From: Thermoanaerobaculia bacterium
GTDB lineage: Bacteria; Acidobacteriota; Thermoanaerobaculia; Multivoradales; JAGPDF01
Direction of reading: 5' to 3'
Assembly: GCA_031403995.1 (NCBI GenBank)
Contig: JANNGS010000036.1
Span: 1,468-65,467 of the forward strand
Length of the DNA stretch: 64,000 nt
Below, in pieces: positions 9,895 to 41,113 of this stretch. Made by a program: the position numbers and the translations under genes. The notes under the pieces are model-generated. The model was not told the origin of the DNA. It ran no database searches and was given only the letters and a program-made list of their open reading frames with translations. Numbering within the stretch: position 1 is the stretch's first letter; each line of letters starts with the position of its first letter.

Positions 9895-10946
9895 AGCTCG
9901 ACGCGTCGGTCGACCTGCTGGTCGTCGGAGCCGGGCCGACGGGAATCGGCCTGGGGGCCGAGGCGAGGCGGGCCGGCCTCTCGACCCTACTGGTCGATCG
10001 CGGGCCGTTGGTCGCTTCGCTGGTCGACTATCCGGCCGAGATGCTCTTTTTCACCACCCGCGAGCGCCTGGAGATCGCTGGAGTGCCCTTCGCCATTCCG
10101 GAGGACAAGCCGAATCGGCGCCAGGCGGTGGCCTACTATCAGGCCGTGGCGGCGAAGTACGAACTGCCGCTGGCGCTGCACGAGGATGTCGAGGCGATCC
10201 GGCCCGAAGCGGGGGAGTTTGTCGTCTCCTCCCGAGGACGGTCCGGCCCGGTCGAGCGGCGAGCCCGAGCGGTGGCGGTCGCCTCCGGTTACTTCTGCAA
10301 TCCGACCCGCCTGGGAGTTCCCGGCGAGAGCTCGCCCTGGGTGCACACCCGCTACCGCGAGGCGCTGGCCCATTTCGGCGACTCGGTGGTCGTCGTCGGG
10401 GGCGGGAATTCGGGCGTCGAAGCGGCGCTCGATCTCTTCCGGCACGGGGCGCGGGTGACGCTGGTCCACCACGGAGCGGCGATCAAGGAGACGGTCAAGT
10501 ACTGGGTCAAACCCGACATCGAGAACCGCATCGCCGAAGGTGCCATCCAGGCGCTGATGGGGGCCGAGGTGGTCGGTTTCGTCGCTGGTGCGGTGCTGGT
10601 TCGGCCGCACCCCGGGTCGGAAGCCATCGCGGTTCCGGCGGGCGCGGCTTATGTCCTGATCGGATACGCTCCGGAGACCGGGTTGCTGGAAGAGGCCGGC
10701 GTACGCGTCGACCCGGCTACCGGGGCGCCCGAGTTTGACGCGGAAAGCTGCGAGACTCGAGTCCCCGGTCTCTATGCGGCAGGGACGGTCCAGGCGGGTC
10801 GCGAGACCCACCGGGTCTTCATCGAGAATTCCCGCGACCACGGGGTCCGGATCGCCTCCCATCTGGCCTCCCGGCTCCGTGGTACACCGATTGCAGCTTC
10901 TCCGAGATCTGCTCGCTCGCCGATGGCCGATGAGACCGTTTCCTGA
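9882..10946 (+). CDS. FAD/NAD(P)-binding oxidoreductase, thioredoxin-reductase-like (YpdA family)
   Basis: N-terminal VDLLVVGAGPTGIG and a second GGGNSGVEAA Rossmann motif. ATG at 9882 overlaps the thiD end. Confidence 0.7.
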   Translation: MSGVKLDASVDLLVVGAGPTGIGLGAEARRAGLSTLLVDRGPLVASLVDYPAEMLFFTTRERLEIAGVPFAIPEDKPNRRQAVAYYQAVAAKYELPLALHEDVEAIRPEAGEFVVSSRGRSGPVERRARAVAVASGYFCNPTRLGVPGESSPWVHTRYREALAHFGDSVVVVGGGNSGVEAALDLFRHGARVTLVHHGAAIKETVKYWVKPDIENRIAEGAIQALMGAEVVGFVAGAVLVRPHPGSEAIAVPAGAAYVLIGYAPETGLLEEAGVRVDPATGAPEFDAESCETRVPGLYAAGTVQAGRETHRVFIENSRDHGVRIASHLASRLRGTPIAASPRSARSPMADETVS

Positions 10947-10959
10947 AGGAGACAGCACC

Positions 10960-12648
10960 ATGGACAGCGCACCCACCCGACGGCTTCCCGCACCTCTCGC
11001 CGCTATCGCTCTCCCCGCCCTCCTTCTCGTGGCCTCCGGTCTCGGGGCGCAGACGGCGGAAACGCCGGGGACCGTGCCGGGCACGCTCTTCGGGGAAACC
11101 GTCGAAGTCCGGGTGATCAACGTCGAGGTCGTGGTCACCGACAAGCAGGGGTTGCCGGTCACCGGTCTCCAGCCTGGCGACTTTTCGCTCAAGATCGACG
11201 GCTCCGAGATGCCGATCCACTACTTCACCGAGGTGCGGGGAGGCGATGCGATCGAGGGGCCGTCGGACGAGCCGGCCATCCCCGGCGTACCGCAACTCGC
11301 GCCGGGCACGCCGGTTGGAACCAGCTACCTGGTCTTCATCGACGACTTCTATCCCCTGGCGCGCGATCGGGATCATGTCATCGAGAAGGTCTCCGCTGAC
11401 CTCGGGCGCCTCCGTCCCGAGGACCGTATGGCGGTCGTCGCCTACGACGGGCGGCGGCTGGAGATGCTCTCCTCCTGGTCGCAGTCGAGCGCCGAGCTCG
11501 AGCGCGTCTTGCGCAAGGCGATGACCCGGCCGGCGGGAGGTGTCCAGCGCGAGGCCGACGACCGCAGGTTCTCGAACAGCAACCGCGGCGACCGGTTCTA
11601 CGGCCGCCGTTCGCGCCTGCTCGACTCGACCCAGATGCGCCTCGACGTGGACGAGCGTGCCTACGCCGAGACGCTGCAGGCGCAGGTCCAGGGGATCGTC
11701 GCCGCGGCCTCCTCGGCGCTGCGTGGGTTCGCCAACCCGCCGGGACGGAAGGTCCTGGTTCTGCTCGCCGGCGGCTGGCCGTACGATCCGGTGGAATACG
11801 CCCTCAACGACTTCAACCGGACGGTGCTCGAGTCGCAGTTGAAGCGCGGCGACGAGCTCCTGGCGCCGCTCACCGACACCGCGAACCAGCTCGGCTACAC
11901 GATTTACGCGGTCGACATCCCCGGCCTGACCGAGGACTCGACCACCAGCGCCGAGTATTCCGCGGGCTCGAACTTTAACGATCGCCAGACGCAATTCCAG
12001 CGCGAGAGCAACGTGCAGTATTCGCTGCAGTACGTCGCCCAGGAGACCGGCGGCGAAGCGCTGCTGAACTCCGCCCGTGATGAGGTTCTCGCCAGAGTCA
12101 CCGAGGACACTCACAGCTACTATTGGATCGGCTTCACCCCCACCTGGCAGGGGGACGACGGCAAGCACAAGGTGGCGCTGTCCACCCGGGTCGAGGACCT
12201 GAAGATCCGCAACCGGGCCGGCTACGTCGACTTCTCGCAGAAGCGGGAGACCACCATGGCGGTCGAGAGCATCCTCCTGTTCGGAGAGGGCCCCAACTCC
12301 GCGGCGCTGCCGGTCGAAGTCGGAACGGCGAGGAAGGTCTCGGGAACCAAGATGAACGTGCCGGTCACGATCCGCATACCGCTCGAACGTCTCACCGCCC
12401 TGGTCACCGACAAGGGGATGAGCGCGGAGGTCGAATTGCGGATCGCGGCGCTCGACGAGCGCGGTGGCCGCTCGGATATTCCCGTCATTCCGATCCGACT
12501 CGACATGCCGGGGAAGGCCCCCGCGGGCGCTTATGCGACGTACACGACGATCATCCAGCTCCGTCGGGCCCGCAACGAATTGGTGCTGGCAATTTCGGAT
12601 GTGGCGGGCGGCGCGATCTACTCCGCCCGGGCCGAAGTCAACCCCTGA
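10960..12648 (+). CDS. Secreted VWA-domain protein of the 'VWFA-related acidobacterial domain' type (TIGR03436-like), copy 1
   Basis: ATG at 10960 with GGAG upstream. Signal peptide, then the hallmark N-terminal 'VEVRVINVEVVVTDKQGLPVTGLQPGDFSLKIDG' beta-sandwich, then a VWA-like region. Family assignment is from memory. Confidence 0.7.
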   Translation: MDSAPTRRLPAPLAAIALPALLLVASGLGAQTAETPGTVPGTLFGETVEVRVINVEVVVTDKQGLPVTGLQPGDFSLKIDGSEMPIHYFTEVRGGDAIEGPSDEPAIPGVPQLAPGTPVGTSYLVFIDDFYPLARDRDHVIEKVSADLGRLRPEDRMAVVAYDGRRLEMLSSWSQSSAELERVLRKAMTRPAGGVQREADDRRFSNSNRGDRFYGRRSRLLDSTQMRLDVDERAYAETLQAQVQGIVAAASSALRGFANPPGRKVLVLLAGGWPYDPVEYALNDFNRTVLESQLKRGDELLAPLTDTANQLGYTIYAVDIPGLTEDSTTSAEYSAGSNFNDRQTQFQRESNVQYSLQYVAQETGGEALLNSARDEVLARVTEDTHSYYWIGFTPTWQGDDGKHKVALSTRVEDLKIRNRAGYVDFSQKRETTMAVESILLFGEGPNSAALPVEVGTARKVSGTKMNVPVTIRIPLERLTALVTDKGMSAEVELRIAALDERGGRSDIPVIPIRLDMPGKAPAGAYATYTTIIQLRRARNELVLAISDVAGGAIYSARAEVNP

Positions 12649-12720: not shown

Positions 12721-14496
12721 ATGAAGAGAATGTCGCTCTACCGTTGGATGCTGCTCTGTGTGGCGGGTCTCGCCGCACCCGGTCTGACTGCGCACCTCGT
12801 CGCCCAGAGCGCGGAATCCGCCCAGCCGGCCCCGGCGGCCGCTGCGCCCGCGGCAACCGTCCCGGCGCCAACCGTCGGGAGTCTTCCGGCCCAGGGGAGT
12901 GGAGAGTTCTTCGAGTCGATCGACGTCAGCGTCGTCAACGTCGACGTCTACGTGACCGACAAGAAGGGGAATCGCGTCAACGGGCTGACCCGCGACGATT
13001 TCGAGATTCTCGAAGACAAGCGACCGATGGCGATCACCAATTTCTACGCCGTCCAGGAGGGCCGTCCGGTGCTGACCGCCGAAGAGCTCGCGGCGCCCGT
13101 GGCAGCGCCTCTGCCAGGAGCGGTGCCGGGAATGCCTGCGGAGGCCCCGGAGGATCAGCGTCTCCACCTGGTGGTCTACATCGACAATTTCAACCTGCAC
13201 CCGTTCAGCCGCAACAGAGTCTTCGGCGCCTTGCGCGAGTTCCTGCGCTCGGACCTGACGCCGGGAGACCGCGTCATGCTCATGACCTACGATCGCGAGC
13301 CCCATGTGCGGCGGCCGTTCACTTCCGATCCGCAGACCATCGCGTCGGCGCTGTTCGAGATCGAAAAGATGAATGCCTTCGCGACCCAGGCCGACTCGGA
13401 TCGCCGCGAGCTCCTGTCCGAGATCGATGACATGAAGGATCCGAATCAGGCGATCACCCGCGCGCGTAGCTATGCCGAGTCGCTGTTCAACGACCTGCAA
13501 TTCTCGATCGACTCACTGAAGAACACGGTGAGCTCGCTCGCCGGCCTGCCCGGACGCAAGGCGGTGCTCTATGTGAGTGACGGGTTGCCGATGGTCGCCG
13601 GCCAGGATGTCTTCCACTACATCCAGGAGAAGTTCTCGTCGGGGGCCTCGACAGCGATCATGGAGAGCCTCACCTACGACGCCTCGCGACGTATCCAGGA
13701 GCTGGTGGCGCAAGCCAACGCCAACCGCATCTCGTTCTACACCATCGATGCTGCGGGGCTGCGGACCTCATCAACGGTTTCGGCGGAGAATCGCACGGCG
13801 AATACGAGCGGAATGGTCGAGTCGATCCACACCAGCAACCTCCAGTCGTCGCTGCAGATGATGGCGGAGGACACCGGCGGCAAGGCGATCTACAACACCA
13901 ACGACCCGACCAAGGGCCTGCTCACCGTGGCCGGCGACTTCAAGACCTACTACTCGCTCGGTTACAGCCCGGTGCACAGCGGCGACGGCCGGTACCACAA
14001 GATCGACGTGCGTACGAAGCGGAAGGACCTCGTGGTCCGGCACCGCGAGGGCTACCGCGACAAGACGACGGAAGCCAAGATGTCCGACGGCGTGATCTCC
14101 GCGCTCTTCTACGACGCGGAAAGCAACAGTCTGGACATCGGCGTGAAGCGCCTCCCTGAGAGCCGGCGCGACGACGGGCTCTTCACCGTGCCGATCGAGA
14201 TCCGCATCCCGATCGGGAATCTTGTTCTCGTCCCGGCGGAGGGCGTGCGCCAGGCGCGGGTGCGCATCTTCTTCGCTGCGATGGACGATGGCGGAGGGAT
14301 GTCCGAGGTGCAGAGCTCGATCGTCCCGATCACCATCCCCGAGGCGGAGGTGGCGACAGCGGTGAAGCAGGTGTATGTCTACGGCATCTCGCTTATGATG
14401 CGCAAAGGGCCGCAGAAGCTCGCCGTCGGAGTGCGTGACGAGGTCGGAGCTGCGCAGGCCTTCACGGTGCGCACGATGAATATCGGCAACAGCTGA
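12721..14496 (+). CDS. Secreted VWA-domain protein of the VWFA-related acidobacterial type, copy 2
   Basis: Signal peptide, 'IDVSVVNVDVYVTDKKGNRVNGLTRDDFEILEDKRPMAITNF', and a VWA-like core (RVMLMTYD...AVLYVSDG). Paralogous to the upstream gene. Confidence 0.7.
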   Translation: MKRMSLYRWMLLCVAGLAAPGLTAHLVAQSAESAQPAPAAAAPAATVPAPTVGSLPAQGSGEFFESIDVSVVNVDVYVTDKKGNRVNGLTRDDFEILEDKRPMAITNFYAVQEGRPVLTAEELAAPVAAPLPGAVPGMPAEAPEDQRLHLVVYIDNFNLHPFSRNRVFGALREFLRSDLTPGDRVMLMTYDREPHVRRPFTSDPQTIASALFEIEKMNAFATQADSDRRELLSEIDDMKDPNQAITRARSYAESLFNDLQFSIDSLKNTVSSLAGLPGRKAVLYVSDGLPMVAGQDVFHYIQEKFSSGASTAIMESLTYDASRRIQELVAQANANRISFYTIDAAGLRTSSTVSAENRTANTSGMVESIHTSNLQSSLQMMAEDTGGKAIYNTNDPTKGLLTVAGDFKTYYSLGYSPVHSGDGRYHKIDVRTKRKDLVVRHREGYRDKTTEAKMSDGVISALFYDAESNSLDIGVKRLPESRRDDGLFTVPIEIRIPIGNLVLVPAEGVRQARVRIFFAAMDDGGGMSEVQSSIVPITIPEAEVATAVKQVYVYGISLMMRKGPQKLAVGVRDEVGAAQAFTVRTMNIGNS

Positions 14497-18992: not shown

Positions 18993-19967
18993 ATGCCAGA
19001 ATTGAACCTCGCCGAGGAGGGGCTTGAGCTCCTGTTCGGCACCCGCGACGAGCATCTGCGGCGAATCGAGACGGCCTTCGGGGTGGAGCTCTCCGCTCGC
19101 GGAAGTCATGTCTCGGTCGAGGGGGCGCCGGCGGCGGTGCAAGCCGTCTCGCGCCTCCTGGAGCAACTCTCCCGGCTGATCGAAAAGGGCTTCCAGCTGC
19201 GTTCCGAGGACGTCTCGACGGCGATCCGGGTCATCCGTGAGGCTCCGGAATCGTCCCTGGTCGAGTTCTTCTCCGGCGAGGCCGCGGTGCCGGGGGGGGG
19301 GAGCGCGGAGGCGCGCCGGATGATCTCGCCCCGCAGCCTCAATCAGAAGGCCTATGTCAAGGCGATGGCCGATCACGACATGGTGATTTCGGTCGGGCCG
19401 GCGGGGACGGGCAAGACCTACCTCGCGGTGGCGATGGCGGCCACGGCGCTCCTCGAAAAGCGGGTCAAACGGCTCGTGCTGGCGCGGCCGGCGGTCGAGG
19501 CGGGGGAGAAGCTCGGCTTCCTGCCGGGCGATCTCGCGGAGAAGGTGAATCCCTACCTCCGGCCGCTGTATGACGCGCTCTACGACATGCTGGGCTACGA
19601 AAAAGTCGGACGGATGCTGGAACGGGGCATGATCGAGGTCGCTCCGCTCGCCTTCATGCGCGGCCGGACGTTGAACGACGCCTTCGTCATCCTCGACGAG
19701 GCGCAGAACACAACGCCCGAGCAGATGAAGATGTTCCTCACTCGCATCGGTTCCAACTCGCAGGCGGTCATCACCGGCGACATCACGCAGACCGACCTGC
19801 CGAAATCGATGGTCTCCGGTCTGCGGGAGGCGATCGACGTCCTCTCGGGCGTCGAGGGGATCTGCTTCATCCACTTCGACGAGCGCGACGTGGTGCGTCA
19901 CCCTCTGGTGCAGAAGATCGTCGCCGCCTACGACCGCTACGCACGCCAGGCAGGAGCTCCCAAGTGA
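18993..19967 (+). CDS. phoH: PhoH-family ATPase
   Basis: VISVGPAGTGKTYLAVA Walker A and ILDEAQNTT Walker B. Canonical phoH-ybeY-corC neighbourhood. Contains a G10 homopolymer at 19292-19301. Confidence 0.85.
   Translation: MPELNLAEEGLELLFGTRDEHLRRIETAFGVELSARGSHVSVEGAPAAVQAVSRLLEQLSRLIEKGFQLRSEDVSTAIRVIREAPESSLVEFFSGEAAVPGGGSAEARRMISPRSLNQKAYVKAMADHDMVISVGPAGTGKTYLAVAMAATALLEKRVKRLVLARPAVEAGEKLGFLPGDLAEKVNPYLRPLYDALYDMLGYEKVGRMLERGMIEVAPLAFMRGRTLNDAFVILDEAQNTTPEQMKMFLTRIGSNSQAVITGDITQTDLPKSMVSGLREAIDVLSGVEGICFIHFDERDVVRHPLVQKIVAAYDRYARQAGAPK
19292..19301. repeat. G10 homopolymer tract inside phoH
   Basis: cggggggggggag, encoding PGGGS. Longest mononucleotide G run noticed in this window. 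Confidence 0.6.
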
Positions 19968-20389
19968 GCCTCGAAGTGGCGTTGTCGGGTGCTTCGAGGT
20001 GGAAGGCGCTGCAGGCGTCGGGACTTTCGATCTGGATGGAGGAACTGGTCGCCGAGCTGGCGCCGGAGTTCGACAGCGTCGGCGTCCGTTTCGCCGGGGA
20101 TCAAACCGTCCGTCGCCTGAATCGCGACTTTCGCGGCAAGGACAAGACGACCGACGTGCTCTCCTTTCCTGGCGAGGAGTCGCCGGAGGGCCGGCATCTG
20201 GGCGACATCGTGATCTCAGTCCCGACCGCCGGGCGCCAGGCCGCGAGCCGCGGTGCGGCTCTCGAGCAGGAGATCAAGCTCCTGCTGCTCCACGGTGTCC
20301 TGCACTGCCTCGGACACGATCACGAGACCGACAAGGGTGAGATGGAGAGGCTCGAGGGGCGACTGCGTCGCCGCTGGTTGAAACGCTGA
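19964..20389 (+). CDS. ybeY: rRNA maturation endoribonuclease YbeY
   Basis: HGVLHCLGHDHE zinc-binding motif. GTG start within a GTGA overlap with the phoH stop. Confidence 0.85.
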   Translation: MSLEVALSGASRWKALQASGLSIWMEELVAELAPEFDSVGVRFAGDQTVRRLNRDFRGKDKTTDVLSFPGEESPEGRHLGDIVISVPTAGRQAASRGAALEQEIKLLLLHGVLHCLGHDHETDKGEMERLEGRLRRRWLKR

Positions 20390-21651
20390 TGGCCGATTCT
20401 CCCGCGCCCTATCTCTGGCTGGCCGCGATCCTCCTCGGACTGCTGCCGTTGCTGTCGCTCGCCACCGCGCTTCTCGAGCGCTCCGGACCGATACGCATGC
20501 GCCATTGGGTGGAGGAGACCGGCGGGAACTTGCGCCAGCTCTGGGAGGACCCGGCCCGATTCGGCCTCTACCGGGTCCTGCTCAATCTCTCCGCCAAGCT
20601 CGTTCCACTCGGGCTCTGCCTAGCCCTCGGCAGGGCCGGAGAGCGCTTCGGATTGGCTCGCCCTTTCATCTACGGCGTCACGGCGGTCGCCGTGGTCGTT
20701 ACGCTTTCCGAGATTGCCGGGCGGCGGATGTTGCGCCGCGGCCCGGAGAGCGCGCTCGCTGGACTGACCTGGATCTACCGCTCGGCCTACTTCGTCTTCC
20801 TGCCGGTGATCGCGCTCCTCGGTCCTCTCCTTGGCGCGCCGCGCGACCTGCTCGATGACCGGGCCGAGGACGACGAGGCGTCGGAAGAGGAGGTCGAGGC
20901 GTTCATCGCGGTCGGGACGCAGGAAGGGATCCTCGAACCGGAGGATCGCGACCTGGTCTGGGGGATCGTCGATTTCGGCGACACCCAGGCGCGCAGCGTG
21001 ATGACACCGCGGGTCGACATGGTCTGCGGGAGGATGTCGGACTCGCTCGACCGGCTGGCCGAGATTTTCACCGAGTCGGAGTACTCGCGCCTGCCGCTCT
21101 ACCGCGACTCGGTCGACCAGATCGTCGCCATCCTGCACCTGCGCGACCTGTTCCATGCCCTGCGCTCGGAGCCGCATCCGGACCTCGAGAGCATCGTGCA
21201 GACGCCCTACTTCATTCCCGGAACGAAACACCTGGGCGAGCTCCTGAAGGAGTTGCAGGCGCGGCGCCAGCAGATCGCGATCGTGCTCAACGAGTTCGGC
21301 GGCACCGAGGGCCTGGTGACGATCGAGGACGTCGTCGAAGAGATCGTCGGGGAGATCGCCGACGAGCACGACGACGAGCCGCCGGAGAACCGCCTGCTCG
21401 AAGACGGCAGCCTCATTCTCGACGGCCGCGCGGCGCTCGATACGCTGGACGATTTCTTCGGCGTGACGCCTCTCGAGGACGGCTACGAAACGGTCGGCGG
21501 CCTGCTCTCCGGCATCTCGGGGCAGGTTCCGGCGGCAGGGACGACGCTCTTCCACTCCGGCCTGCAGTTCGACGTCGAAAAGGCCGACGATCGCCGCGTG
21601 CTCGCGGTGCGCGTGCGGCGTCCCGGCATCCAGGAGATACCCATTGGCTAA
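20389..21651 (+). CDS. CNNM/CorC-type hemolysin-family protein (DUF21, tandem CBS, CorC_HlyC)
   Basis: N-terminal 4-TM DUF21, then CBS pair, then the C-terminal transporter-associated domain. Start overlaps the ybeY stop. Confidence 0.8.
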   Translation: MADSPAPYLWLAAILLGLLPLLSLATALLERSGPIRMRHWVEETGGNLRQLWEDPARFGLYRVLLNLSAKLVPLGLCLALGRAGERFGLARPFIYGVTAVAVVVTLSEIAGRRMLRRGPESALAGLTWIYRSAYFVFLPVIALLGPLLGAPRDLLDDRAEDDEASEEEVEAFIAVGTQEGILEPEDRDLVWGIVDFGDTQARSVMTPRVDMVCGRMSDSLDRLAEIFTESEYSRLPLYRDSVDQIVAILHLRDLFHALRSEPHPDLESIVQTPYFIPGTKHLGELLKELQARRQQIAIVLNEFGGTEGLVTIEDVVEEIVGEIADEHDDEPPENRLLEDGSLILDGRAALDTLDDFFGVTPLEDGYETVGGLLSGISGQVPAAGTTLFHSGLQFDVEKADDRRVLAVRVRRPGIQEIPIG

Positions 21652-22637: not shown

Positions 22638-23264
22638 CTAGCCGGAGTCGAGCGCTGCGGCGAGGATCGGCTTCGCCCAAGTCGGCACGTTGCCGAGGGG
22701 CGCATGCCGCGATACTTTTCCGTGTTGGCTGTGCAGCAGGAGGAGCGGTGCGGGCCGCGCGCCTTGCGCTGGGTCGGCTTCGAGGCTGTTGTCGTAGACG
22801 TAGAGCGCCGCGAGGTGGGGAAGCAGGCGGACAAGGTTCGCGCGGCTGGTGGTGAAGCGCTGGCGGATCTTCGCTTCGGGGATGTCGTGACCGCCGGCCG
22901 CGACGCGACGTCGAACGCGCTCCATGTGGAGCTCTGGCGAAGCGAGCCCGACGAAGGAGAGATGAATCCCGGCGCCCTGCGCGGCGCCGGCCAAGAGCAG
23001 CTCGCAGATCGTCCTTCCTCCCAGGGTTGTTTCGAAGGCGAAGAACTCCCCTCGCAGGAGAGCGCGCTCGAGGCGGCTACGGCCGATTTCCCAGGCCAGA
23101 GCGTTGGCTTCGACGGCGGCGAGGCCAGGGTTGGCGGCGAGGAGCTGGCGTGCGGCGGCGTCGGGATCGAAGAACTCGCCGCCCTCTGCGCGAATCGCGG
23201 CGCCCGCGACGCTGCTCTTGCCGGCCCCGTTGACCCCGGCGAGGACGACGATGCTTGCTGGCAT
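22638..23264 (-). CDS. Zeta-toxin-like / AAA_33-like P-loop kinase, putative toxin
   Basis: Walker A LAGVNGAGKSS near the N-terminus. Size (~208 aa) and fold are consistent with zeta/PezT-like small-molecule kinases. Start overlaps the stop of the upstream Phd-like gene by 1 nt (TAATG). Confidence 0.6.
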   Translation of the reverse strand: MPASIVVLAGVNGAGKSSVAGAAIRAEGGEFFDPDAAARQLLAANPGLAAVEANALAWEIGRSRLERALLRGEFFAFETTLGGRTICELLLAGAAQGAGIHLSFVGLASPELHMERVRRRVAAGGHDIPEAKIRQRFTTSRANLVRLLPHLAALYVYDNSLEADPAQGARPAPLLLLHSQHGKVSRHAPLGNVPTWAKPILAAALDSG

Positions 23265-23632
23265 TACCCGCGGCGGCGCGAATGTGCTTTGGCCGGCCGA
23301 GGGCTTGGAGTGGCGGACCGCTGAAGGTCCAGCGCGGCGATGGTCCTGTCCGCGACTCCGGGCGCCTGTATGCGGGCGTAGAGATCGTCGAAGCGAGCGG
23401 TCAGGAGGTCGAGGTTGGGAGTGCCCGCCCGCTCCAGCTCCAGGTAGCGCTCGATCGACATCAGCACCATCACCGGCTCGTCGTGTTTGGTGATCACCAC
23501 CGCGCCGCGCTGCATCACCTCGCGCGTGACGGCACCGACAGAGGTCGCGAGCTCGGTCGAGGAGAACGGCGGCAATCCGCTGACCGCTGTCCGGGCCGTT
23601 TCGGACTGTCGAACTTCAGTCTCTGGGCGCAT
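23264..23632 (-). CDS. Phd/YefM-like antitoxin with C-terminal extension
   Basis: VVITKHDEPVMVLMSIERYLELE matches the prevent-host-death antitoxin core. Strong SD (AGGAGGA) upstream of the ATG at 23632. Confidence 0.55.
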   Translation of the reverse strand: MRPETEVRQSETARTAVSGLPPFSSTELATSVGAVTREVMQRGAVVITKHDEPVMVLMSIERYLELERAGTPNLDLLTARFDDLYARIQAPGVADRTIAALDLQRSATPSPRPAKAHSRRRG

Positions 23633-23650
23633 GGGTATCCTCCTGATCCG

Positions 23651-23700
23651 GAAGGAGAATAGACTAAATACATAAAGTCTGCAAAATACAGAACGTCAGC
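23651..23700 (-). promoter_or_regulatory. Putative sigma70-like promoter (TTGCAG-N17-TATTCT on minus strand) with an inverted-repeat operator AGACT-N10-AGTCT (23661-23680) for the Phd/zeta operon
   Basis: Locally AT-rich 81-bp intergenic region. The palindrome sits between the -35-like and -10-like hexamers. The SD and ATG follow within ~25 nt. Confidence 0.35.
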
Positions 23701-23713
23701 GACCGCTGCCTGC

Positions 23714-25030
23714 TCAGGGCACCCGGTTCTCCGCCACGAGCTTGCGGACCATGGCAATGTTGTCGCGGTGGCCGGTGAGGTGGGCGCGGACGCGGCCGCG
23801 GAGGGGGTAGCCCAGGAGATAGAGGTCGCCGATGATGTCGAGGATCTTGTGGCGGACGAACTCGTCGGGGAAGCGCAGTTCGGTGTTCACCACGTGGTCT
23901 TCGCCGACCAGGATGAAGTTGTCGAGCCTACCGCCTGAGCCCAGTCCCAGCTCGTTCATCATCTTGAGGTCGCGCAGGAAGCCGAAGGTCCGCGCCGGAG
24001 CGATCGCCTGCTTGTACGCCGCGAAGCTGGTGAGCTCGAAGTCGAAGAACTGCTCGCCGATCGGCGGCGGGTAGCGCAGGAGATAGGAGACCGCGAAGCC
24101 GTCGAACGGCTCGATGGTCAGCATCTTCTCGCCTGAGCCGACCTCGTATTTCCTGTCGACGACGAACTCGAGGCGCGTCTCGCCCTGCTCCTCGACGCCG
24201 ATCTCTTCGATGGTGCGGCAGAACTCGGCGGCCGAGCCGTCGAGCACCGGCACCTCGCCATGCACCTTGACCAGCAGATTCGTGATTCCAGAGGCGTGGA
24301 GGGCCGAGAGCAGATGTTCCACCGTCTTGATCGTCGAGCCGTTCAGCCCCAGCGTCGTGGCGTAGTCGGTATCGCCGACCGCCGAGACGTGCGCCGGGAT
24401 CGACTCCCCGGAAGGCATCGAGTGGAAATGGATGCCCGAACCTGCCGGCAGCGGCTGCAGCACCATGCCGGTGCGCCCGCCGGAGTGGAGCCCCAGGCCA
24501 TAGAGCACCGTGTTCTGGCGCAGCGTCCGCTGCGGCGTCCGGCTGCGCTCGAGGTGGAGCAGGGGAGGAATCGTCGTGCGCCGGGGCTCCGGATGGACGG
24601 AGAATCCGCCAGACTCCTCGGGCATGGCTCCGGCGACGCCCGCGGTGCCTGCAGAGCGGGCCGTGTGATGGGCGAGCCCGGCGCGGGCCGCGGCCATCAC
24701 CTGCTCGTACGAGAGCGGCTTCTCGAGGTAGTCGAACGCCCCCATCTTGATCGCCCGCACCGCGGTCACCGCCGTGCCATGTCCGGAGATCATGATGATC
24801 GTCGCTCGCGGATCGAACTCGCGCAGGGTCTGCAGGGTCTCGAGACCGTCGCGGTCCGGGAGCCAGACGTCGAGGAAGACGATCTCGGGCTTGCGAGTGG
24901 CGTAGAGATCGAGCGCTTCGGTGCCGCTCGGGGTGGTGGCGACCTCGAATCCGTTGTCGGCGAGGATGCCGCCCAGGGTCGCGAGGATGCCGGCTTCGTC
25001 GTCGACGATGAGGACCAATGGACGAGTCAT
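23714..25030 (-). CDS. lpxC: Response-regulator receiver domain fused to UDP-3-O-acyl-N-acetylglucosamine deacetylase (REC-LpxC)
   Basis: N-terminal REC (LVLIVDDEAG...IVFLDVWLPDRDGLETL...IMISGHG...KMGAFDYLEKP). C-terminal LpxC motifs (GLGLHSGG...HLLSALHASGI...FVRHKILDIIGDLYLLGYPLRG...TGHRDN), including HKxxD and the His ligands. ATG at 25030. The ORF's TTG at 25063 is less likely. Confidence 0.8.
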   Translation of the reverse strand: MTRPLVLIVDDEAGILATLGGILADNGFEVATTPSGTEALDLYATRKPEIVFLDVWLPDRDGLETLQTLREFDPRATIIMISGHGTAVTAVRAIKMGAFDYLEKPLSYEQVMAAARAGLAHHTARSAGTAGVAGAMPEESGGFSVHPEPRRTTIPPLLHLERSRTPQRTLRQNTVLYGLGLHSGGRTGMVLQPLPAGSGIHFHSMPSGESIPAHVSAVGDTDYATTLGLNGSTIKTVEHLLSALHASGITNLLVKVHGEVPVLDGSAAEFCRTIEEIGVEEQGETRLEFVVDRKYEVGSGEKMLTIEPFDGFAVSYLLRYPPPIGEQFFDFELTSFAAYKQAIAPARTFGFLRDLKMMNELGLGSGGRLDNFILVGEDHVVNTELRFPDEFVRHKILDIIGDLYLLGYPLRGRVRAHLTGHRDNIAMVRKLVAENRVP

Positions 25031-25086
25031 CGGAGGGCAGTTTACCGCGCCTGGCGGCCGCAAGTCGCTGTGCTACATTCGCGGCC

Positions 25087-26478
25087 GTGGACGTCGCCGC
25101 TTCCCATGAACCGCCCCGGCGCCAGCTTCTCGCGGATACGCTGAGGAAGTTCCAGGAGCGCGGCGCCGAGGTCAACATCTCGCGGCTCCTCGGCCGGGTG
25201 CGGCCGGAGGATGTCGCGCTGCTTCTCGTCGACCTGGAGAGCGCCAAGCGCCGCCAGGTCTTCGACATCCTGAGCGCCGACTTTCCCGAGGCGGCCGGCG
25301 ACGTCCTCACCGAAATGGCGCCGGCGCAGCGCCTCGAGTTGCTGGAGAACCTGCCGCCTGAGCGCACCGCCCGTTTGCTCGAGAGGCTGCCGGTCGATGA
25401 CGCCGTCTTCGTCCTCGAGGCGCTGCCCACTGACCTTCATGACCGCCTGCTCGAGCTGGTCGATCTCTCCGGCCGGTCGGAGATGCAGACCCATCTCGCC
25501 TACCGCGAGGGCAGCGCGGGCCGGATCATGGATCCCGAGTTTTTCGCCCAGGCCGAGGGCGAGACCGTCCAGGCGGCCATCGCCGCGATCCAGCAGAAGC
25601 GCGACCTCGAGATGATCTTCTACCTCTATGTCGTCGATCGCGACGCCCATCTCGTCGGAGTGACGTCGCTGCGCCAGCTGCTGCTCTCGCGACCGGCGCA
25701 GACGCTGGGCGAGATCATGCAGAAGTCGCTGATCAAGGTCCACGTCGACACCGACCAGGAAGAGGTCGCGGCCCAGGCCGCGCGCTACGACCTGCTGGCG
25801 GTGCCGGTGGTCGACGATCAGAACCGGCTGGTCGGCATCATCACGGTTGACGACATCATCGATGTCGTCAAAGAGGAGGCCAACGAAGACCTCTTCAAGC
25901 TGGCGGGCTCCTCCGACGACGAGTTGCTTTACGAGCAGCGTTCATTGCGAATCGCCGGCCTTCGCCTGCCCTCCCTGATGCTGAGCCTCGTCGGCCTGCT
26001 CGCGGTGGGGCTGGTGTTGCAGTATTTCCAGCTCCAGTTTCCCGACGCCCTGATCCTGCTCGCTTTCGCGCCGGTTATCATGGGATTGAGCGGATCGATC
26101 GGGAGTCAGACCTCTACCGTCGCCGTACGCGGGCTCTCGACCGGCCGGCTCGAGGCCGGAGATGGAAGGCTCGTGGCGTTCTTCATCCGCCAGCTCCGCG
26201 TGGCGGTCCTCCTCGGGCTCGCCTGCGGAATCCTCGTCGGCGGGGCCGGGCTGCTGCTGCGCCAGAGCGCGCTTTTCGGCCTGATTGTCGGCCTCTCGCT
26301 CTTCCTGGCGATCCTGGTCGCGGCCGCCATGGGCGTGCTCCTCCCGCTGGCTCTCGAGCGTCTGGGGTTCGACCCGGCGGTCGCCTCCGGTCCGGTGCTC
26401 TCGACCGCCAACGACATGACCGGCATCCTGATCTATTTCGGCGTTGCCGCCGCGCTCCTGCGCCACCTCACGCCCTGA
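25087..26478 (+). CDS. mgtE: Magnesium transporter MgtE (copy 2); start uncertain (GTG 25087 or ATG 25018)
   Basis: MgtE_N, two CBS domains, C-terminal TM domain with GLSGSIGSQTSTVAVRGLSTG. ATG 25018 would overlap the divergent REC-lpxC start by 13 nt. Confidence 0.8.
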   Translation: MDVAASHEPPRRQLLADTLRKFQERGAEVNISRLLGRVRPEDVALLLVDLESAKRRQVFDILSADFPEAAGDVLTEMAPAQRLELLENLPPERTARLLERLPVDDAVFVLEALPTDLHDRLLELVDLSGRSEMQTHLAYREGSAGRIMDPEFFAQAEGETVQAAIAAIQQKRDLEMIFYLYVVDRDAHLVGVTSLRQLLLSRPAQTLGEIMQKSLIKVHVDTDQEEVAAQAARYDLLAVPVVDDQNRLVGIITVDDIIDVVKEEANEDLFKLAGSSDDELLYEQRSLRIAGLRLPSLMLSLVGLLAVGLVLQYFQLQFPDALILLAFAPVIMGLSGSIGSQTSTVAVRGLSTGRLEAGDGRLVAFFIRQLRVAVLLGLACGILVGGAGLLLRQSALFGLIVGLSLFLAILVAAAMGVLLPLALERLGFDPAVASGPVLSTANDMTGILIYFGVAAALLRHLTP

Positions 26479-30591: not shown

Positions 30592-33303
30592 ATGGGCAAC
30601 AAGTGGGTCTACGGCTTCGACCAGCTGGCGAGCGCCGAAAGCGCGGCGGGGAGTTGGGACGCGGTCCGCGGCCTGCTCGGAGGCAAGGGCGCGAACCTGG
30701 CCGACATGACGCGACTCGGCCTGCCGGTGCCGCCCGGATTCACCGTCACCACCGCCGCCTGCAACGCCTATCTCGCCGCCGGCGAACAGATGCCGGAAGG
30801 CCTCTGGGAGGAGGCGCGCGCGGCGCTCAGTCGGCTCGAGGCGATGACCGGCAAGCGTTTCGGCGACGCTGCGAACCCGCTGCTCGTCTCCTGCCGCTCC
30901 GGAGCGCGCTTCTCGATGCCGGGCATGATGGACACGGTGCTCAACATCGGCCTCAACGACGAGGTCGCGGGAGGTCTCGAGCGCCTCAGCGGCGACGCGC
31001 GATTCGCCTTCGACAGCTATCGCCGGCTGGTGCAGATGTTCGGTTCGGTGGTGATGGAGGTCGCCGACGAGCCGTTCGAAGAGGTGCTGACGGAGGCCCG
31101 CAATCGGGCCGGGGTCGCGCGCGACTCCGACCTCGGCGCCGACGATTGGCGGCGGGTGACCGGGGAGTTCAAGGCGATCATCGAGCGCCAGACGGGCCGG
31201 CCGTTCCCGCAGGACCCGCGGGAGCAAATCCGGCTCGCCACGGAAGCAGTTTTCCGCAGCTGGAACGGTCGCCGCGCCGTCGACTACAGGAACGCCGCCA
31301 AGATTGCCCACGACCTGGGCACGGCGGTCAACATCTGTGCCATGGTCTTCGGCAATCTCGGCGACGACTCGGCAACCGGCGTCGCGATGACCCGCAGCGG
31401 GGCGACCGGCGCGCCGGGGATCGAAGGCGACTACCTCACCAACGCCCAGGGCGAGGATGTGGTCGCCGGCGTCCGGATGACGAAACCGATCGAGCAACTG
31501 CGGAGCGAGATGCCGGCAGCCTATGCCGAGTTCGAGGCAATCGCCGGAAAGCTCGAGCGCCACTATCGCGACATGCAGGATGTCGAGTTCACCATCGAGC
31601 GCCGCAAGCTCTGGATGCTGCAGACCCGCGACGCCAAGCGCACCGCCCAGGCCGCCGTGCGCATCGCCGTCGACATGGTGAACGAGGGGTTGATCACCCG
31701 CGAACAGGCGGTGCTCCGCGTATCGCCCGACCAGGTCGACTTTTTTCTTCACCCACAGTTTGAAAGAAGCTCGGTAAAGAGGGCGATCGAGGCCCACGCT
31801 CGATTGGCGGTCGGATTGAACGTCTCCCCAGGCGCAGCGGTGGGCGTCATCGCGTTCGACGCCGATGTCGCTGAGCGCTGGGCGAAAGACTCCCATCGAC
31901 CGGTCATCATGGTTCGACCGGAGACCAAGCCGGACGACGTGCACGGCATGCTCGCTGCGAAGGGCCTTCTGACGAGCCGCGGAGGTCGCACCAGCCACGC
32001 GGCACTCGTCGCCCGCCAGTTCGGCAAGCCCGCGGTGGTCGGAGTGGCGGAGCTCGAGATCGACCTCGAGTCACGCACGATGCGGGTCGCGTCGCGGACC
32101 TTTGCCGAAGGCGACTGGATCTCGATCGACGGCACCTCGGGAGAGGTTTTTGCCGGCGAGCTCACCACCATCGTCCCCGATCTCAAGGATCCTTATTTGC
32201 TGAAGCTTCTGTCTTGGGCCGACACCGAACGTCGCCTTCAGGTCTGGGCGAATGCCGACTATCCCGCCGACGCCGAGCGGGCGCGCGAATACGGCGCGCA
32301 GGGCATCGGCCTCTGCCGCACGGAGCACATGTTCTTCGAGACGGAGAGGATGCCGGTGGTGCAGCGGATGATCCTCGCCAAAGACGAACCGAAAGTCGTG
32401 GCCGAGTGCCTCGAAGTCCTGCTGTCGCATCAACGGAAGGACTTCTACGGTCTTTTCAAGGCGATGGACGGGCTGCCGGTGATCGTGCGACTGATCGACC
32501 CGCCGCTGCACGAGTTTCTTCCCGGCCATCTCGAGGTCGCGATGGAGGTCGAGAGGCTCGAGGAGTCCGGTGCGGATCCGGCGGCGCTCGCCGAGCGTCG
32601 GCACGTTCTGACGGCTGTGCAGCGACTGAGCGAGTCGAACCCGATGCTCGGCCTGCGCGGGGTGCGCCTCGGAATTCACATGGCGGCTCTCACCCGCATG
32701 CAGGTGCGGGCGATCTTCGAGGCCGCTTGCCAGGCGGCGAGCGAAGGGATCGACGTTCATCCCGAGGTGATGATTCCGCTGGTCGGGCACTGGCGCGAGC
32801 TCGAGGTCCAGCAGCAAGCGCTCGAACAGGAGGCGGTGAAGGTGATGGCCGAGCAGGGCCGGCGGGTGAGCTACAAATTCGGCACGATGATCGAGATCCC
32901 GCGCGCCGCCCTGACCGCCGATGAGCTCGCGCGGTTCGCCCAGTTCTTCTCCTTCGGCACCAACGACCTGACGCAGATGACCTTCGGGATCTCGCGCGAC
33001 GACGCCGAGAAGGGATTTCTGCTCGAGTACCTGGCGAAATCGATCCTGCCCGAGAACCCGTTCGCCTCGATCGACGAGGCGGGCGTCGGCAAGCTCATGA
33101 GGATGGCGGTCGAGTTGGGGAGACAGACCCGCCCCGGCATGGAGATCGGCATTTGCGGCGAGCACGGCGGCGATCCGAAGTCGGTCGCCTTCTGCCACAC
33201 GATCGGCCTCGACTATGTCTCCTGCTCCCCCTTCCGCATTCCCATCGCCCGCCTTGCGGCGGCCCACGCCGCGCTCAGAGAGCGTGGCATGACGGCGAAA
33301 TAG
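30592..33303 (+). CDS. ppdK: Pyruvate, phosphate dikinase
   Basis: ATG at 30592 after GGAGGG. PPDK motifs: GGKGANLAEM-like (GGKGANLADM), the phospho-His region GGRTSHAALVARQFGKPAVVG, and a C-terminal PEP-utilising TIM barrel (NDLTQMTFGISRDD; CGEHGGDP). Confidence 0.9.
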   Translation: MGNKWVYGFDQLASAESAAGSWDAVRGLLGGKGANLADMTRLGLPVPPGFTVTTAACNAYLAAGEQMPEGLWEEARAALSRLEAMTGKRFGDAANPLLVSCRSGARFSMPGMMDTVLNIGLNDEVAGGLERLSGDARFAFDSYRRLVQMFGSVVMEVADEPFEEVLTEARNRAGVARDSDLGADDWRRVTGEFKAIIERQTGRPFPQDPREQIRLATEAVFRSWNGRRAVDYRNAAKIAHDLGTAVNICAMVFGNLGDDSATGVAMTRSGATGAPGIEGDYLTNAQGEDVVAGVRMTKPIEQLRSEMPAAYAEFEAIAGKLERHYRDMQDVEFTIERRKLWMLQTRDAKRTAQAAVRIAVDMVNEGLITREQAVLRVSPDQVDFFLHPQFERSSVKRAIEAHARLAVGLNVSPGAAVGVIAFDADVAERWAKDSHRPVIMVRPETKPDDVHGMLAAKGLLTSRGGRTSHAALVARQFGKPAVVGVAELEIDLESRTMRVASRTFAEGDWISIDGTSGEVFAGELTTIVPDLKDPYLLKLLSWADTERRLQVWANADYPADAERAREYGAQGIGLCRTEHMFFETERMPVVQRMILAKDEPKVVAECLEVLLSHQRKDFYGLFKAMDGLPVIVRLIDPPLHEFLPGHLEVAMEVERLEESGADPAALAERRHVLTAVQRLSESNPMLGLRGVRLGIHMAALTRMQVRAIFEAACQAASEGIDVHPEVMIPLVGHWRELEVQQQALEQEAVKVMAEQGRRVSYKFGTMIEIPRAALTADELARFAQFFSFGTNDLTQMTFGISRDDAEKGFLLEYLAKSILPENPFASIDEAGVGKLMRMAVELGRQTRPGMEIGICGEHGGDPKSVAFCHTIGLDYVSCSPFRIPIARLAAAHAALRERGMTAK

Positions 33304-33317
33304 GGGAGCGCGGCGGC

Positions 33318-34610
33318 TTGCCACCGGAGGGGAAACTCCCGAGTCCCACGCGCTCCGGGACAGGCCTGCCTGCGCCACCCACGGGCCTCCTCACCGGCTG
33401 CTGGCGGGACTTCCGCCGCCTCGACTGGAAGTGGCATTTCCTGGCACTGGCGACGCTCATCGGCGTCCTCGCGGTCCATGCGGCGGCGGTCCTGCGGTCG
33501 GACTCGCCGACCATCGACGAGGCGACCTACGAGCGCGCGTTCGCTGCCGTCGCCGAAGGGCGTTCTCCCTACCAGAGTCCCGGCTACTACTACCCGGCCG
33601 CCTTCGCTTACTTCGGAGCGTTCCTCGTCGAAGGGCTCGGCGTCAACGGGGCACGGACTCTCTTCCGCTGGCTCAACCTGGGCGGCTCAGCCCTGACCTG
33701 CTGGCTTGCTGCCGCCTGGTGGTGGAGCACCGGCCGCAGCGTGCGCACGCGCTTCACCGAGCGCCTTCTGGTCGCGTTGGTGCTCATGCTGGTCGCGCCC
33801 GGGGTCGGCGCCGGCCTCGCCACCGGGAACTTCTCGCTGACGGCTTCCTCCTGGATCAACTTGGCGCTCCACACGGCGGGCTCCTGGCCAATCCTCGCCG
33901 GCGCCATTCTGGGAGCCAGTCTGATCACCAAGCCGCTCGCGGCGATCGTCCTGCCGGTCTTCGCCGGCGCCGCGCTCTCGCCCCGCGCCGGGCGCATGAT
34001 CTCTCCGGTCACCGTCGTCGTCGCCTCCGTCCTCGCGAGTGGCGGCTTTCTGCTGCTGCCCTATTTCAGCGAGATGCTGGCCCTCGAGGTCATGGAGGGG
34101 ACGCTCGGAGGGACGATATCGCTGCTCAGGGTCGCGCACCTCTTCGACTTCGAACTCCACCAGGTGCTCCTGCTCGTCCTGCTGTCGCCGCTCGCCTTCC
34201 TGGCGGGCCGGCGGTACGCGACCGACCGCGTCGCGCTGATCTGTAGCTCTCTGGCGTTGGTGATGGTCACCTCGCCGGCGATCTGGCCCTACACCGCGAC
34301 GGTCTTCTTCCCCGTTCCGGTGATGGCGCTCTCGGTGGCGCGCTCGCGCTACGAGGCGCGCTACCTCGGTCCGGTCCCGGCGCGCCAGGCAGGGCTCGAG
34401 GTCATCCTGGTCGCGGCGCTCGCGATCGCGGTCCTCTTCCTCAACGGCGGTGCTTTCGATCGCCTGCCGCGGGGACCGCAGATCGTGCTCCTCCTGGCGC
34501 AGCTCGCAGCTCCGGTGCTGCTCGCCGGATACGTCCTGCGGTCGGCCGCGTCCCGGCAGTCGGGGGAGTTCTCGGCGGCCGCCGAAACGCCCGATAGACT
34601 GTCGGCATGA
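33318..34610 (+). CDS. Polytopic membrane protein, GT87/DUF2029-like glycosyltransferase candidate (non-ATG start)
   Basis: ~10 predicted TM helices, Trp/aromatic-rich loops and no N-terminal Met codon. In-frame TTG at 33318 immediately after the ppdK stop. Stop overlaps the mutL ATG (ATGA). Family call is tentative. Confidence 0.5.
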   Translation: MPPEGKLPSPTRSGTGLPAPPTGLLTGCWRDFRRLDWKWHFLALATLIGVLAVHAAAVLRSDSPTIDEATYERAFAAVAEGRSPYQSPGYYYPAAFAYFGAFLVEGLGVNGARTLFRWLNLGGSALTCWLAAAWWWSTGRSVRTRFTERLLVALVLMLVAPGVGAGLATGNFSLTASSWINLALHTAGSWPILAGAILGASLITKPLAAIVLPVFAGAALSPRAGRMISPVTVVVASVLASGGFLLLPYFSEMLALEVMEGTLGGTISLLRVAHLFDFELHQVLLLVLLSPLAFLAGRRYATDRVALICSSLALVMVTSPAIWPYTATVFFPVPVMALSVARSRYEARYLGPVPARQAGLEVILVAALAIAVLFLNGGAFDRLPRGPQIVLLLAQLAAPVLLAGYVLRSAASRQSGEFSAAAETPDRLSA

Positions 34611-38520: not shown

Positions 38521-38530
<10 letters not shown>

Positions 38531-41064: not shown

Positions 41065-41113
41065 CCGCCTATTCTGTCGCCGTTTCGCTCCCGGGGGGCG
41101 GGGGAGAGGTAGC

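Follow-up and report, generated by a model that had tools for sequence, protein, structure and literature searches.

A receiver domain and LpxC are encoded by a single gene

In the 64,000-nt stretch of contig JANNGS010000036.1 of a Thermoanaerobaculia bacterium analyzed here, which we refer to as the window, a gene on the minus strand (23714 to 25030) encodes a response regulator receiver domain (REC) fused to LpxC, the UDP-3-O-acyl-GlcNAc deacetylase of lipid A synthesis. This REC-lpxC gene, which is supported by the listing of open reading frames (ORFs), its translation, Pfam and NCBIfam matches, and full-length orthologues, starts with ATG and has 438 codons followed by a TGA stop codon; the longest version of the ORF begins at TTG 25063. 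It is flanked on one side by phoH-ybeY-corC-era and on the other, in divergent orientation, by mgtE-recO-glyQ-glyS. The G+C content at third codon positions (GC3) of the frame was coding-like throughout (0.89), and the protein C terminus (...LVAENRVP) lies four residues past the LpxC domain. The original prediction, according to which one ORF encodes a complete receiver and an apparently competent LpxC, agrees with the domain searches in Pfam and NCBIfam, which matched both domains in full. The gene product is a genuine single-polypeptide response regulator with the lipid A enzyme LpxC as its output domain.

The receiver domain comprises residues 4 to 118 (24677 to 25021, minus strand) and was assigned as NtrX-like on the basis of PF00072, NF051870, a match to structure 4d6x, an AlphaFold2 model, and the ratio of nonsynonymous to synonymous substitution rates (dN/dS). 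Pfam Response_reg (PF00072) matched residues 6 to 115 (1.3e-28) with 99.8 bits versus a gathering score of 30.2. The top NCBIfam receiver match was NtrX (NF051870, 2.6e-29), with a score of 102 bits that comes from the receiver region alone and compares with a cut-off of 600 bits. Pfam detected neither an AAA+ nor an HTH_8 (helix-turn-helix [HTH]) domain in the protein, which thus lacks the full REC-AAA+-HTH_8 architecture and would be NtrX-derived rather than an NtrX. The closest solved receiver by sequence was 4d6x (7e-22), deposited as "bacterial regulatory, Fis family protein," and 5m7n, deposited as "nitrogen assimilation regulatory protein," was also among the best structure matches; we take both to be Brucella NtrX.

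The predicted phospho-acceptor Asp54 in the motif FLDVWLPDRDG is encoded at 24869 to 24871 and the acidic pocket Asp10-Asp11 at 24998 to 25003, whereas Ser82 at the end of β4 (SGHG motif), the switch aromatic Tyr101, and Lys104-Pro105 at the end of β5 are encoded within 24719 to 24787, all on the minus strand. All of these codons were verified, and D10, D11, D54, S82, Y101, K104, and P105 were invariant in 83 aligned orthologues. In the AlphaFold2 model the receiver has the (βα)5 fold, with strands at residues 5 to 9, 29 to 33, 50 to 54, 78 to 82, and 100 to 103 alternating with five helices. The DD pocket, the acceptor Asp, and the conserved T/S and K positions that had been named from the sequence are therefore all present and correctly placed, and a proper alignment did not expose the acceptor as missing. 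The receiver is apparently phosphorylatable.

The LpxC domain comprises residues 163 to 434 (23729 to 24544, minus strand), as defined by PF03331, TIGR00325, Foldseek, and dN/dS. PF03331 matched residues 167 to 432 (1.2e-84, 284 bits) over profile positions 1 to 267 of 268, and the NCBIfam lpxC equivalog TIGR00325 scored 234.1 bits versus a cut-off of 187.25. The closest solved structure by sequence was LpxC of Pseudomonas aeruginosa (E value, 9e-54), and Foldseek comparison of the model with the P. aeruginosa, Aquifex aeolicus, and Escherichia coli enzymes gave an E value of 1e-30 and target-normalized template modeling (TM) scores of 0.78 to 0.89. In the alignment to P. aeruginosa LpxC, the HKxxD motif (His394, Lys395, and Asp398; 23837 to 23851) corresponds to HKILD and Glu238-His239 (24314 to 24319) to TVEHLLSA, and His421 of the TGHRDN motif was placed by alignment as well (23768 to 23770, all on the minus strand). 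H182 (GLHSG), T348-F349, and D402 are further LpxC residues in place. The codons of all named residues were verified, and all are invariant in the 83 orthologues. We take H394, K395, and D398 to be equivalent to E. coli H238, K239, and D242, which include two of the three zinc ligands, E238 to the general base E78, H239 to the zinc ligand H79, H421 to H265, T348 to T191, and D402 to D246. The HKxxD motif and the GLHSG and TGHRDN histidines noted in the first reading of the sequence were thus borne out, and the LpxC half is apparently catalytically competent.

The two domains are joined by a linker of about 45 residues (119 to 162; 24545 to 24676, minus strand), delimited by alignment and by the predicted local distance difference test (pLDDT). 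It consists of the tail of helix α5 (to about residue 128), a disordered variable stretch (residues 131 to 146), and a semiconserved PPxL-x-L motif before LpxC, in which P155, L157, and L160 are conserved at at least 90%. Among orthologues its length varies between 31 and 52 residues. The AlphaFold2 model, calculated from a multiple alignment of the 83 orthologues, had a mean pLDDT of 86.6 and a predicted TM score (pTM) of 0.69, with a helix at H108-128 and pLDDT values below 50 at residues 131 to 146. Pfam detected no HTH remnant in the linker, which as a whole is unconserved.

The fusion is conserved in Thermoanaerobaculia

In a search of 5.8 billion proteins, the 120 best clusters showed 67 to 93% identity to the window protein, and 118 of them contained both Pfam domains in proteins of 404 to 450 residues; the named ones were all designated "Thermoanaerobaculia bacterium." The two exceptional clusters, one with LpxC only and one with both domains in 404 residues, both come from short contigs and probably represent truncated sequences. 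When one genome per species was scanned, 378 genomes contained a relative, and all of the best 80 of these 378, which were the ones analyzed, contained the full-length fusion. Nearly all are metagenome-assembled genomes (MAGs) labeled Thermoanaerobaculia or Acidobacteriota.

In the 83-sequence alignment, the receiver and LpxC showed mean identities to the window protein of 73% and 81%, respectively, compared with 27% in the linker. In comparison with the eight closest orthologues analyzed, dN/dS was between 0.08 and 0.16 for the receiver and between 0.11 and 0.19 for LpxC, with relaxed values for the linker. As the phospho-site residues are invariant and the receiver dN/dS equals that of LpxC, the receiver is kept as strictly as the enzyme, with equal purifying selection acting on both domains.

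It had been considered that a frameshift or a lost stop codon might have merged separate genes for a response regulator and LpxC through an assembly or sequencing error. Against such an artefact, the identical unbroken architecture was found in assemblies from NCBI, ENA, JGI, and Logan, the frame has the same coding-like GC3 throughout, and the linker changes its length by whole codons. The reverse error was seen in a frameshifted long-read contig (L086), in which the fusion is broken into pieces. A frameshift or misassembly is ruled out by the comparative data, that is, by the uninterrupted fusion in the 80 genomes and in 118 of the 120 clusters, and the probability that we assign to an artefact is close to nil.

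The window protein resembles a reduced member of a family of NtrX-LpxC fusions

A HMMER search of 1.84 billion cluster representatives uncovered LpxC domains preceded by more than a receiver. According to Pfam, a long form has the architecture REC-Sigma54_activat-AAA_lid_14-HTH_8-LpxC (about 650 to 736 residues) and an intermediate form the architecture REC-HTH_8-LpxC (491 to 505 residues), whereas the short form consists of REC-LpxC (about 430 residues). Clustering at 50% identity resulted in about 15 long, 3 intermediate, and 19 short representatives. A protein search seeded with the long form returned 120 clusters, all of which have AAA+ and LpxC; those of about 720 to 770 residues also have the receiver, and the shorter entries are mostly located on short contigs. 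Named long forms come from Deltaproteobacteria, Desulfobacterota, or Thermodesulfobacteriota MAGs, many of them named "response regulator NtrX" by JGI. Intermediate forms carry the names Nitrospinota and "Candidatus Entotheonellia," and one short form is encoded in AP019861.1, a 2.68-Mb genome record labeled Spirochaetota. Among 123 long forms, Walker A was kept in 118 and GAFTGA, the sigma-54 contact motif, was absent from all; the Walker B Glu was replaced in all 36 in which the motif could be matched. We take the absence of GAFTGA and the replaced Walker B Glu to be the condition of NtrX and not of NtrC.

A neighbor-joining tree of LpxC domains separated nearly all fused forms, as one clade, from stand-alone LpxC. 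Short and long forms were intermingled in this clade, which also contains the intermediate forms, and the window sequence was placed there together with the short forms from Thermoanaerobaculia. Four "stand-alone" LpxCs fell into the fused clade: two of them (P0156 and P0184) come from contigs about 900 bp long and probably represent fragments, and one (P0171) is a fusion split by frameshifts. The window LpxC domain shares 46 to 56% identity with the LpxC domains of long and intermediate forms and 38 to 44% with nearly all stand-alone LpxCs; three entries listed as LpxC alone showed 44 to 52% identity, of which two or three are fusion fragments. Because the receiver is NtrX-like, longer relatives have the NtrX architecture, and the LpxC domains share a clade, we read the window protein as a reduced NtrX::LpxC, and it looks like the most reduced grade of a multiphylum family in which LpxC is attached to the C terminus of an NtrX-type regulator. 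Most simply, lpxC would have become joined to the 3' end of ntrX once, long ago, and the internal AAA+ and HTH segments would then have been lost repeatedly.

The acceptor Asp was kept in 35 of the 37 family representatives at 50% identity. The equivalents of E78, H79, H238, K239, D242, D246, and H265 were kept in 37 of 37 and that of T191 in 36 (Ser in P0160), whereas the H19 equivalent varies (H, Q, M, or L) in some members. In the long form P0150, the acidic pocket is gone, as are the acceptor Asp and the Lys. This pattern bears on whether the fusion might be a regulated paralogue beside a canonical stand-alone LpxC, serving, for example, conditional remodeling or a different substrate. The variable H19 equivalent would suit such a paralogue, and a second lpxC could lie elsewhere in the genome, as our LpxC scan covered the 39 ORFs of the window. 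Several findings speak against it: the score of the protein exceeds the curated cut-off for the lpxC equivalog, every representative has kept seven of the eight residues checked for zinc binding or catalysis and all except one have kept the eighth, the gene lies amid housekeeping genes (era, ybeY, recO, and glyQS) in an order conserved in the close clade, relatives occur in 378 species genomes, and no second LpxC (PF03331) was found by Pfam among the 39 ORFs. We therefore regard a paralogue of this kind as highly unlikely.

Relatives of the fusion are linked to NtrY-type kinases

The window protein had been described as an orphan regulator. This is correct insofar as no kinase gene is adjacent in the window; its relatives, however, point to NtrY as the source kinase family. 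Pfam detected no histidine kinase among the 39 window ORFs, and neither synteny nor ORF clustering over the 80 loci revealed a conserved kinase or lpx gene near the fusion. Searches with NtrY, LolA, and DUF4390 (tblastn) against these loci and the window gave only generic kinase-core matches with 21 to 28% identity to NtrY.

Five loci of long or intermediate forms were inspected (L081, L083, L093, L094, and L095), and each of them has an NtrY-type kinase gene directly upstream of the fusion. The kinases have about 730 to 780 residues and the architecture HAMP-PAS-HisKA-HATPase_c, preceded by a recorded NtrY_N in four of them. A DUF4390 gene precedes the kinase gene in four loci (none was called in L081), and lolA follows the fusion in four, sometimes behind a formyltransferase gene, with L094 lacking lolA. 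The next gene encodes an RseP-like site-2 (M50/PDZ) protease in three of the five; in a fourth case (L082) it is a partial unannotated ORF at the contig end, and no M50 gene was visible in the stretches of L083 and L094 examined. The resulting order, DUF4390-ntrY-ntrX::lpxC-(formyltransferase)-lolA-rseP-like, covers about 4 kb on the upstream side of the fusion gene and about 5 kb on the downstream side, and it ties the kinase and the fusion to outer-membrane lipoprotein transport and an envelope-stress-type protease.

The linkage also occurs with the short form. In locus L097, the gene for a 741-residue NtrY-type kinase overlaps the start of a 440-residue REC-LpxC gene by GTGA, and in this two-gene unit of ntrY and REC-lpxC, LpxC is the sole output. 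The same order of kinase and fusion is present in the long-read contig L086 (5500 to 8900), where indels split the kinase and the receiver over three frames, which accounts for the false stand-alone LpxC P0171 and for kinase fragments in the database. Locus L096, which carries the fusion P0142 (6001 to 7365), has a neighborhood like that of L081 (GlnD-PhoH-YbeY-MutS ... LolA-RseP); ntrY and the AAA+/HTH segment are gone, and in the P0142 receiver the acceptor Asp is changed to Asn (LLNIWLPG). L096 looks like a natural case, and a single one, of a lost kinase and a decayed phospho-site. That the Asp is invariant in Thermoanaerobaculia and decayed in L096 argues that a phosphodonor is still in use in the former.

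These loci also bear on whether the receiver might be a mere leftover of NtrX, either idle or serving as a phosphorylation-independent structural or dimerization module, with LpxC being constitutive. The ancestral AAA+ and HTH segments were lost, apparently more than once, the kinase gene is nonadjacent in Thermoanaerobaculia, and P0142 and P0150 have retained the fusion with degenerate phospho-sites, all of which would fit a leftover. On the other hand, the six residues of the phospho-chemistry are invariant in the 83 orthologues down to 67% identity, the receiver dN/dS equals that of the catalytic domain, and the mutated acceptor in L096, which lacks ntrY, is what would be expected after kinase loss and was not seen in the clade of the window protein. 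A leftover thus seems very improbable to us.

Possible modes of control of LpxC by the receiver

We consider it fairly probable that the window protein is a reduced NtrX::LpxC that has become separated from its kinase gene and that phosphorylation of Asp54 directly modulates its LpxC domain. Asp54 would be phosphorylated by a histidine kinase, for which an NtrY-like enzyme encoded elsewhere in the genome is the most plausible candidate. The receiver would then shift its conformation or dimerize via the α4-β5-α5 face and the extended α5 helix, through which receivers of the NtrC family dimerize, and this change would be passed through the flexible tether of about 45 residues to alter LpxC activity. 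By analogy with known enzymes, active-site occlusion could be relieved or imposed, as in the methylesterase CheB, where phosphorylation relieves occlusion, or the oligomeric state could change, as in the diguanylate cyclases PleD and WspR, where phosphorylation drives dimerization. Because stand-alone LpxC is active as such, LpxC would be inhibited in one receiver state and released in the other. We speculate that phosphorylation might be the inhibitory event, since NtrYX lowers lpxC expression in alphaproteobacteria.

A number of observations weigh against direct modulation by an NtrY-type kinase. Stand-alone LpxC is active by itself, so that an effect of the receiver on catalysis is something we infer, and a second, stand-alone lpxC may be present elsewhere in the genomes. 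The fusion has no adjacent kinase gene in the window, nor does it have one in the 80 loci of the Thermoanaerobaculia type. No Thermoanaerobaculia were found among the 120 best matches to an NtrY profile built from two sequences, but this list was saturated by Nitrospinota, Nitrospirota, and NC10 types and carries no weight. The receivers of orphan and NtrY-linked fusions share 53% consensus identity overall, and their "specificity" regions in α1 and β5-α5 (53 to 62%) are like the rest of the domain. The neighbor-joining tree is a tree of a score-selected sample without support values. P0142 and P0150 lack an intact phospho-site and have yet kept the fusion, so the receiver may also have a phosphorylation-independent role. 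Finally, with a pTM of 0.69 and a disordered linker, the AlphaFold2 model offers no confident interface between receiver and LpxC that would support occlusion.

Alternatively, the receiver might set the abundance or location of LpxC, with phosphorylation exposing or hiding a degradation signal or an adaptor- or membrane-binding surface and a phospho-degron taking the place of the FtsH/LapB degron. Receiver domains aid regulated proteolysis in CtrA, and the receiver proteins RssB and CpdR serve as adaptors. The long disordered linker is a possible protease entry site, and the protein has no E. coli-type C-terminal tail, so that another handle would be needed. As anecdotal observations, upstream genes encode a protein with a Lon substrate-binding domain (L087) and an AAA+ protein resembling ClpB (L089). 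Where it has been studied, LpxC is described as being controlled mainly by proteolysis or by LapB-type localization (PMC12444477). However, no protease or adaptor gene is conserved beside the fusion, and the C terminus is not conserved, which argues against a shared terminal degron. Control of abundance or location would need the same phosphorylation input and differs from direct modulation in the last step only, so that sequence cannot separate the two; we think it rather unlikely.

Direct modulation of LpxC activity could be extended to the whole family, whose MAGs are labeled Desulfobacterota/Thermodesulfobacteriota, Nitrospinota, Entotheonellia, Thermoanaerobaculia, and Spirochaetota. The family would hard-wire the committed enzyme of lipid A synthesis to NtrY, and in its minimal form, which has no transcriptional arm, phosphorylation of one Asp would directly set LpxC activity. 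For this broader proposal we see the arguments as evenly balanced.

Start site and genomic neighborhood of REC-lpxC

According to the original prediction, the start of REC-lpxC lies 13 nt inside the divergent mgtE ORF. This is formally true of the longest mgtE ORF (25018 to 26478, plus strand) and is probably an artefact of ORF extension. The first 23 codons of this ORF (25018 to 25087) are poorly conserved, conservation of MgtE beginning at about residue 23 to 34, and GTG 25087 is the sole other in-frame start codon within its first 150 nt. Translation from GTG 25087 results in 463 residues, close to the length of the product of the second mgtE ORF in the window (461 residues). For these reasons mgtE probably starts at GTG 25087, so that it would not overlap lpxC but be separated from it by a divergent spacer of about 56 bp. 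A scan of positions 23400 to 25400 for sigma-70 promoters and intrinsic terminators detected none.

The gene order of the window, with mgtE-recO-glyQS and era-corC-ybeY-phoH, is kept in the approximately 15 closest loci (at least 69% identity). In the remaining 65 of the 80 loci no window neighbor gene is retained, and the contexts are variable (E1 dehydrogenase, glycogen synthase, sulfatase, cupin, and others). We observed phoH, ybeY, or corC within a few kilobases of the fusion in the window (19964 to 21651) and also in L087 (13832 to 15257), L081 (4117 to 4852), and L096 (1610 to 3038), a recurrence that spans Thermoanaerobaculia, a genome labeled Spirochaetota, and Desulfobacterota-type loci. 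It may be the remnant of an old neighborhood or a coincidence.

Between lpxC and era, positions 22638 to 23632 (minus strand) encode an AAA_33 P-loop kinase-like protein (208 residues) and a Phd/YefM-type antitoxin (122 residues); upstream of the pair lies an AT-rich spacer of 81 bp that contains a strong ribosome-binding site (AGGAGG). This pair was absent from close relatives except for a phd-like match in L011 and looks like an inserted module of the toxin-antitoxin type. The two mgtE paralogues (MgtE_N-CBS-MgtE) lie less than 19 kb apart, the second at 6730 to 8115 (minus strand), and together with a CorC/CNNM-type CBS protein (20389 to 21651) they make three putative transport proteins for Mg2+ or divalent cations near lpxC.

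Apart from REC-lpxC, the sole lipid A-related signature among the scanned window ORFs was found in a 206-residue ORF (40732 to 41352, minus strand), whose C-terminal part matches LAB_N, the Lipid A Biosynthesis N-terminal domain (PF07578, 9.5e-21). A 2375-residue ORF (45127 to 52254, minus strand; GC3, 0.90) with FG-GAP repeats, several right-handed β-helix stretches, and a NosD-like stretch probably encodes a secreted or surface adhesin-like protein. Two P-loop NTPases are of uncertain role, an AAA_16/ORC-CDC6-like ATPase of 571 residues (38521 to 40236, minus strand) and a HerA/DUF87-like ATPase of 797 residues (60832 to 63225, plus strand). Four further long ORFs with coding-like GC3, all on the plus strand (618 to 2285, 10735 to 12648, 12721 to 14496, and 33153 to 34610), had no or marginal Pfam matches (VWA_2, 1.3e-5; GT87 and DUF1576, about 5e-3).

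Significance and comparison with known systems

The flux into lipid A is set by LpxC, a leading target for antibiotics, whose recognized modes of control are proteolysis (FtsH/LapB and Lon), localization, and transcription. In the bacterium described here, outer-membrane synthesis is probably switched directly by phosphorylation, a mode undescribed for LpxC; this conclusion is drawn from the relatives in other phyla, which are still paired with NtrY and suggest that the window protein is a cut-down NtrX. What is new is LpxC as the output of a response regulator, in a lineage that began as a transcription factor. Fusion proteins of this kind are already public under the automatic annotations "LpxC" or "NtrX," and in the literature, which we screened by title, abstract, and term look-up and in which subscription journals were thinly covered, we found no description of a REC-LpxC or NtrX-LpxC fusion. 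REC-LpxC offers a simple and testable mode of control, a phospho-switch on the enzyme itself, which, if true, would be the first described enzyme-level two-component control of outer-membrane biogenesis.

The system most closely related is NtrY/NtrX of Brucella, Caulobacter, and Rhodobacter sphaeroides. The receiver of the window protein is most similar to NtrX, and its longer relatives are built like NtrX, lack GAFTGA in their AAA+ domain, and have a gene for an NtrY with NtrY_N upstream. The window protein differs in having no AAA+ and HTH domains, so that it cannot be a transcription factor and its output is the enzyme itself, and in its nonadjacent ntrY. In the alphaproteobacteria studied, NtrX is linked to lpxC at the transcriptional level, indirectly in the case of R. 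sphaeroides. There, deletion of ntrYX was reported to raise the lpxC mRNA level 8.8-fold and to increase lipopolysaccharide (LPS), and lpxC was reported to have no NtrX site (PMC7240162); the LPS increase is given as two-fold in a 2025 lipid A review in the Journal of Biological Chemistry, according to which NtrYX of Caulobacter crescentus also represses lpxC (PMC12444477). This review lists NtrYX (R. sphaeroides and C. crescentus) and ChvGI as transcriptional inputs, and the words "fusion," "receiver," and "response regulator" do not occur in it (PMC12444477). Experiments have thus connected NtrYX with the cell envelope and with the levels of lpxC and LPS (PMC7240162, PMC12444477).

So far this link was a transcriptomic correlation in alphaproteobacteria only. 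The graded series from NtrX::LpxC with NtrY via REC-HTH-LpxC to REC-LpxC, which includes a form lacking both an adjacent ntrY and the acceptor Asp, provides a physical and evolutionary link between NtrYX and lipid A. It would make the long-unclear physiology of NtrY signaling more tractable, and the two-gene unit of L097 is an attractive system for finding out what NtrY senses. If direct control is true, the fusions might serve as a "Rosetta stone" for the altered lpxC and LPS levels and the envelope defects of alphaproteobacterial NtrYX mutants.

With stand-alone LpxC of E. coli, P. aeruginosa, and A. aeolicus, the window protein shares the fold, 33 to 40% identity, and the full set of zinc ligands and acid/base residues, whereas it has an additional N-terminal receiver and linker and falls into a separate clade of fused LpxC. 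It also differs from enterobacterial LpxC controlled by FtsH/LapB, as it has neither a C-terminal extension nor an FtsH degron, and its C terminus is unconserved; in E. coli the FtsH degron has been assigned to the C terminus of LpxC (reference B22 in PMC3333781; PMC12444477). Proteolysis via FtsH/LapB had been put forward in the original prediction as the normal control of LpxC, which applies to the enterobacterial mode and is, according to the review, not universal (PMC12444477).

Enzymatic response regulators such as CheB, PleD/WspR, and the HD-GYP protein RpfG likewise consist of a receiver and a catalytic domain with a flexible linker between them. In contrast to these, the output in the window protein is a biosynthetic housekeeping enzyme of lipid A and not a signaling or second-messenger enzyme, and the protein would derive from a transcription factor lineage by internal domain loss. 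Another natural LpxC fusion is the bifunctional LpxC/FabZ (NF009667), of which the window protein matches the LpxC half with 192 bits, far below the cut-off of 465; there, unlike here, the partner is a C-terminal metabolic enzyme, FabZ.

DVU2934 of Desulfovibrio vulgaris is comparable in being an NtrC-family regulator of the REC-AAA+-HTH type that is aimed at lpxC; in that case, regulator and lpxC are separate genes and control is exerted at the promoter level. lpxC was reported as its single mapped target, orthologues were described in Deltaproteobacteria and Acidobacteria (Geobacter and Acidobacterium), and in Syntrophobacter lpxC adjoins the regulator operon (PMC3333781). The fusions fit and sharpen the published picture, in that regulator and enzyme are one protein in several phyla.

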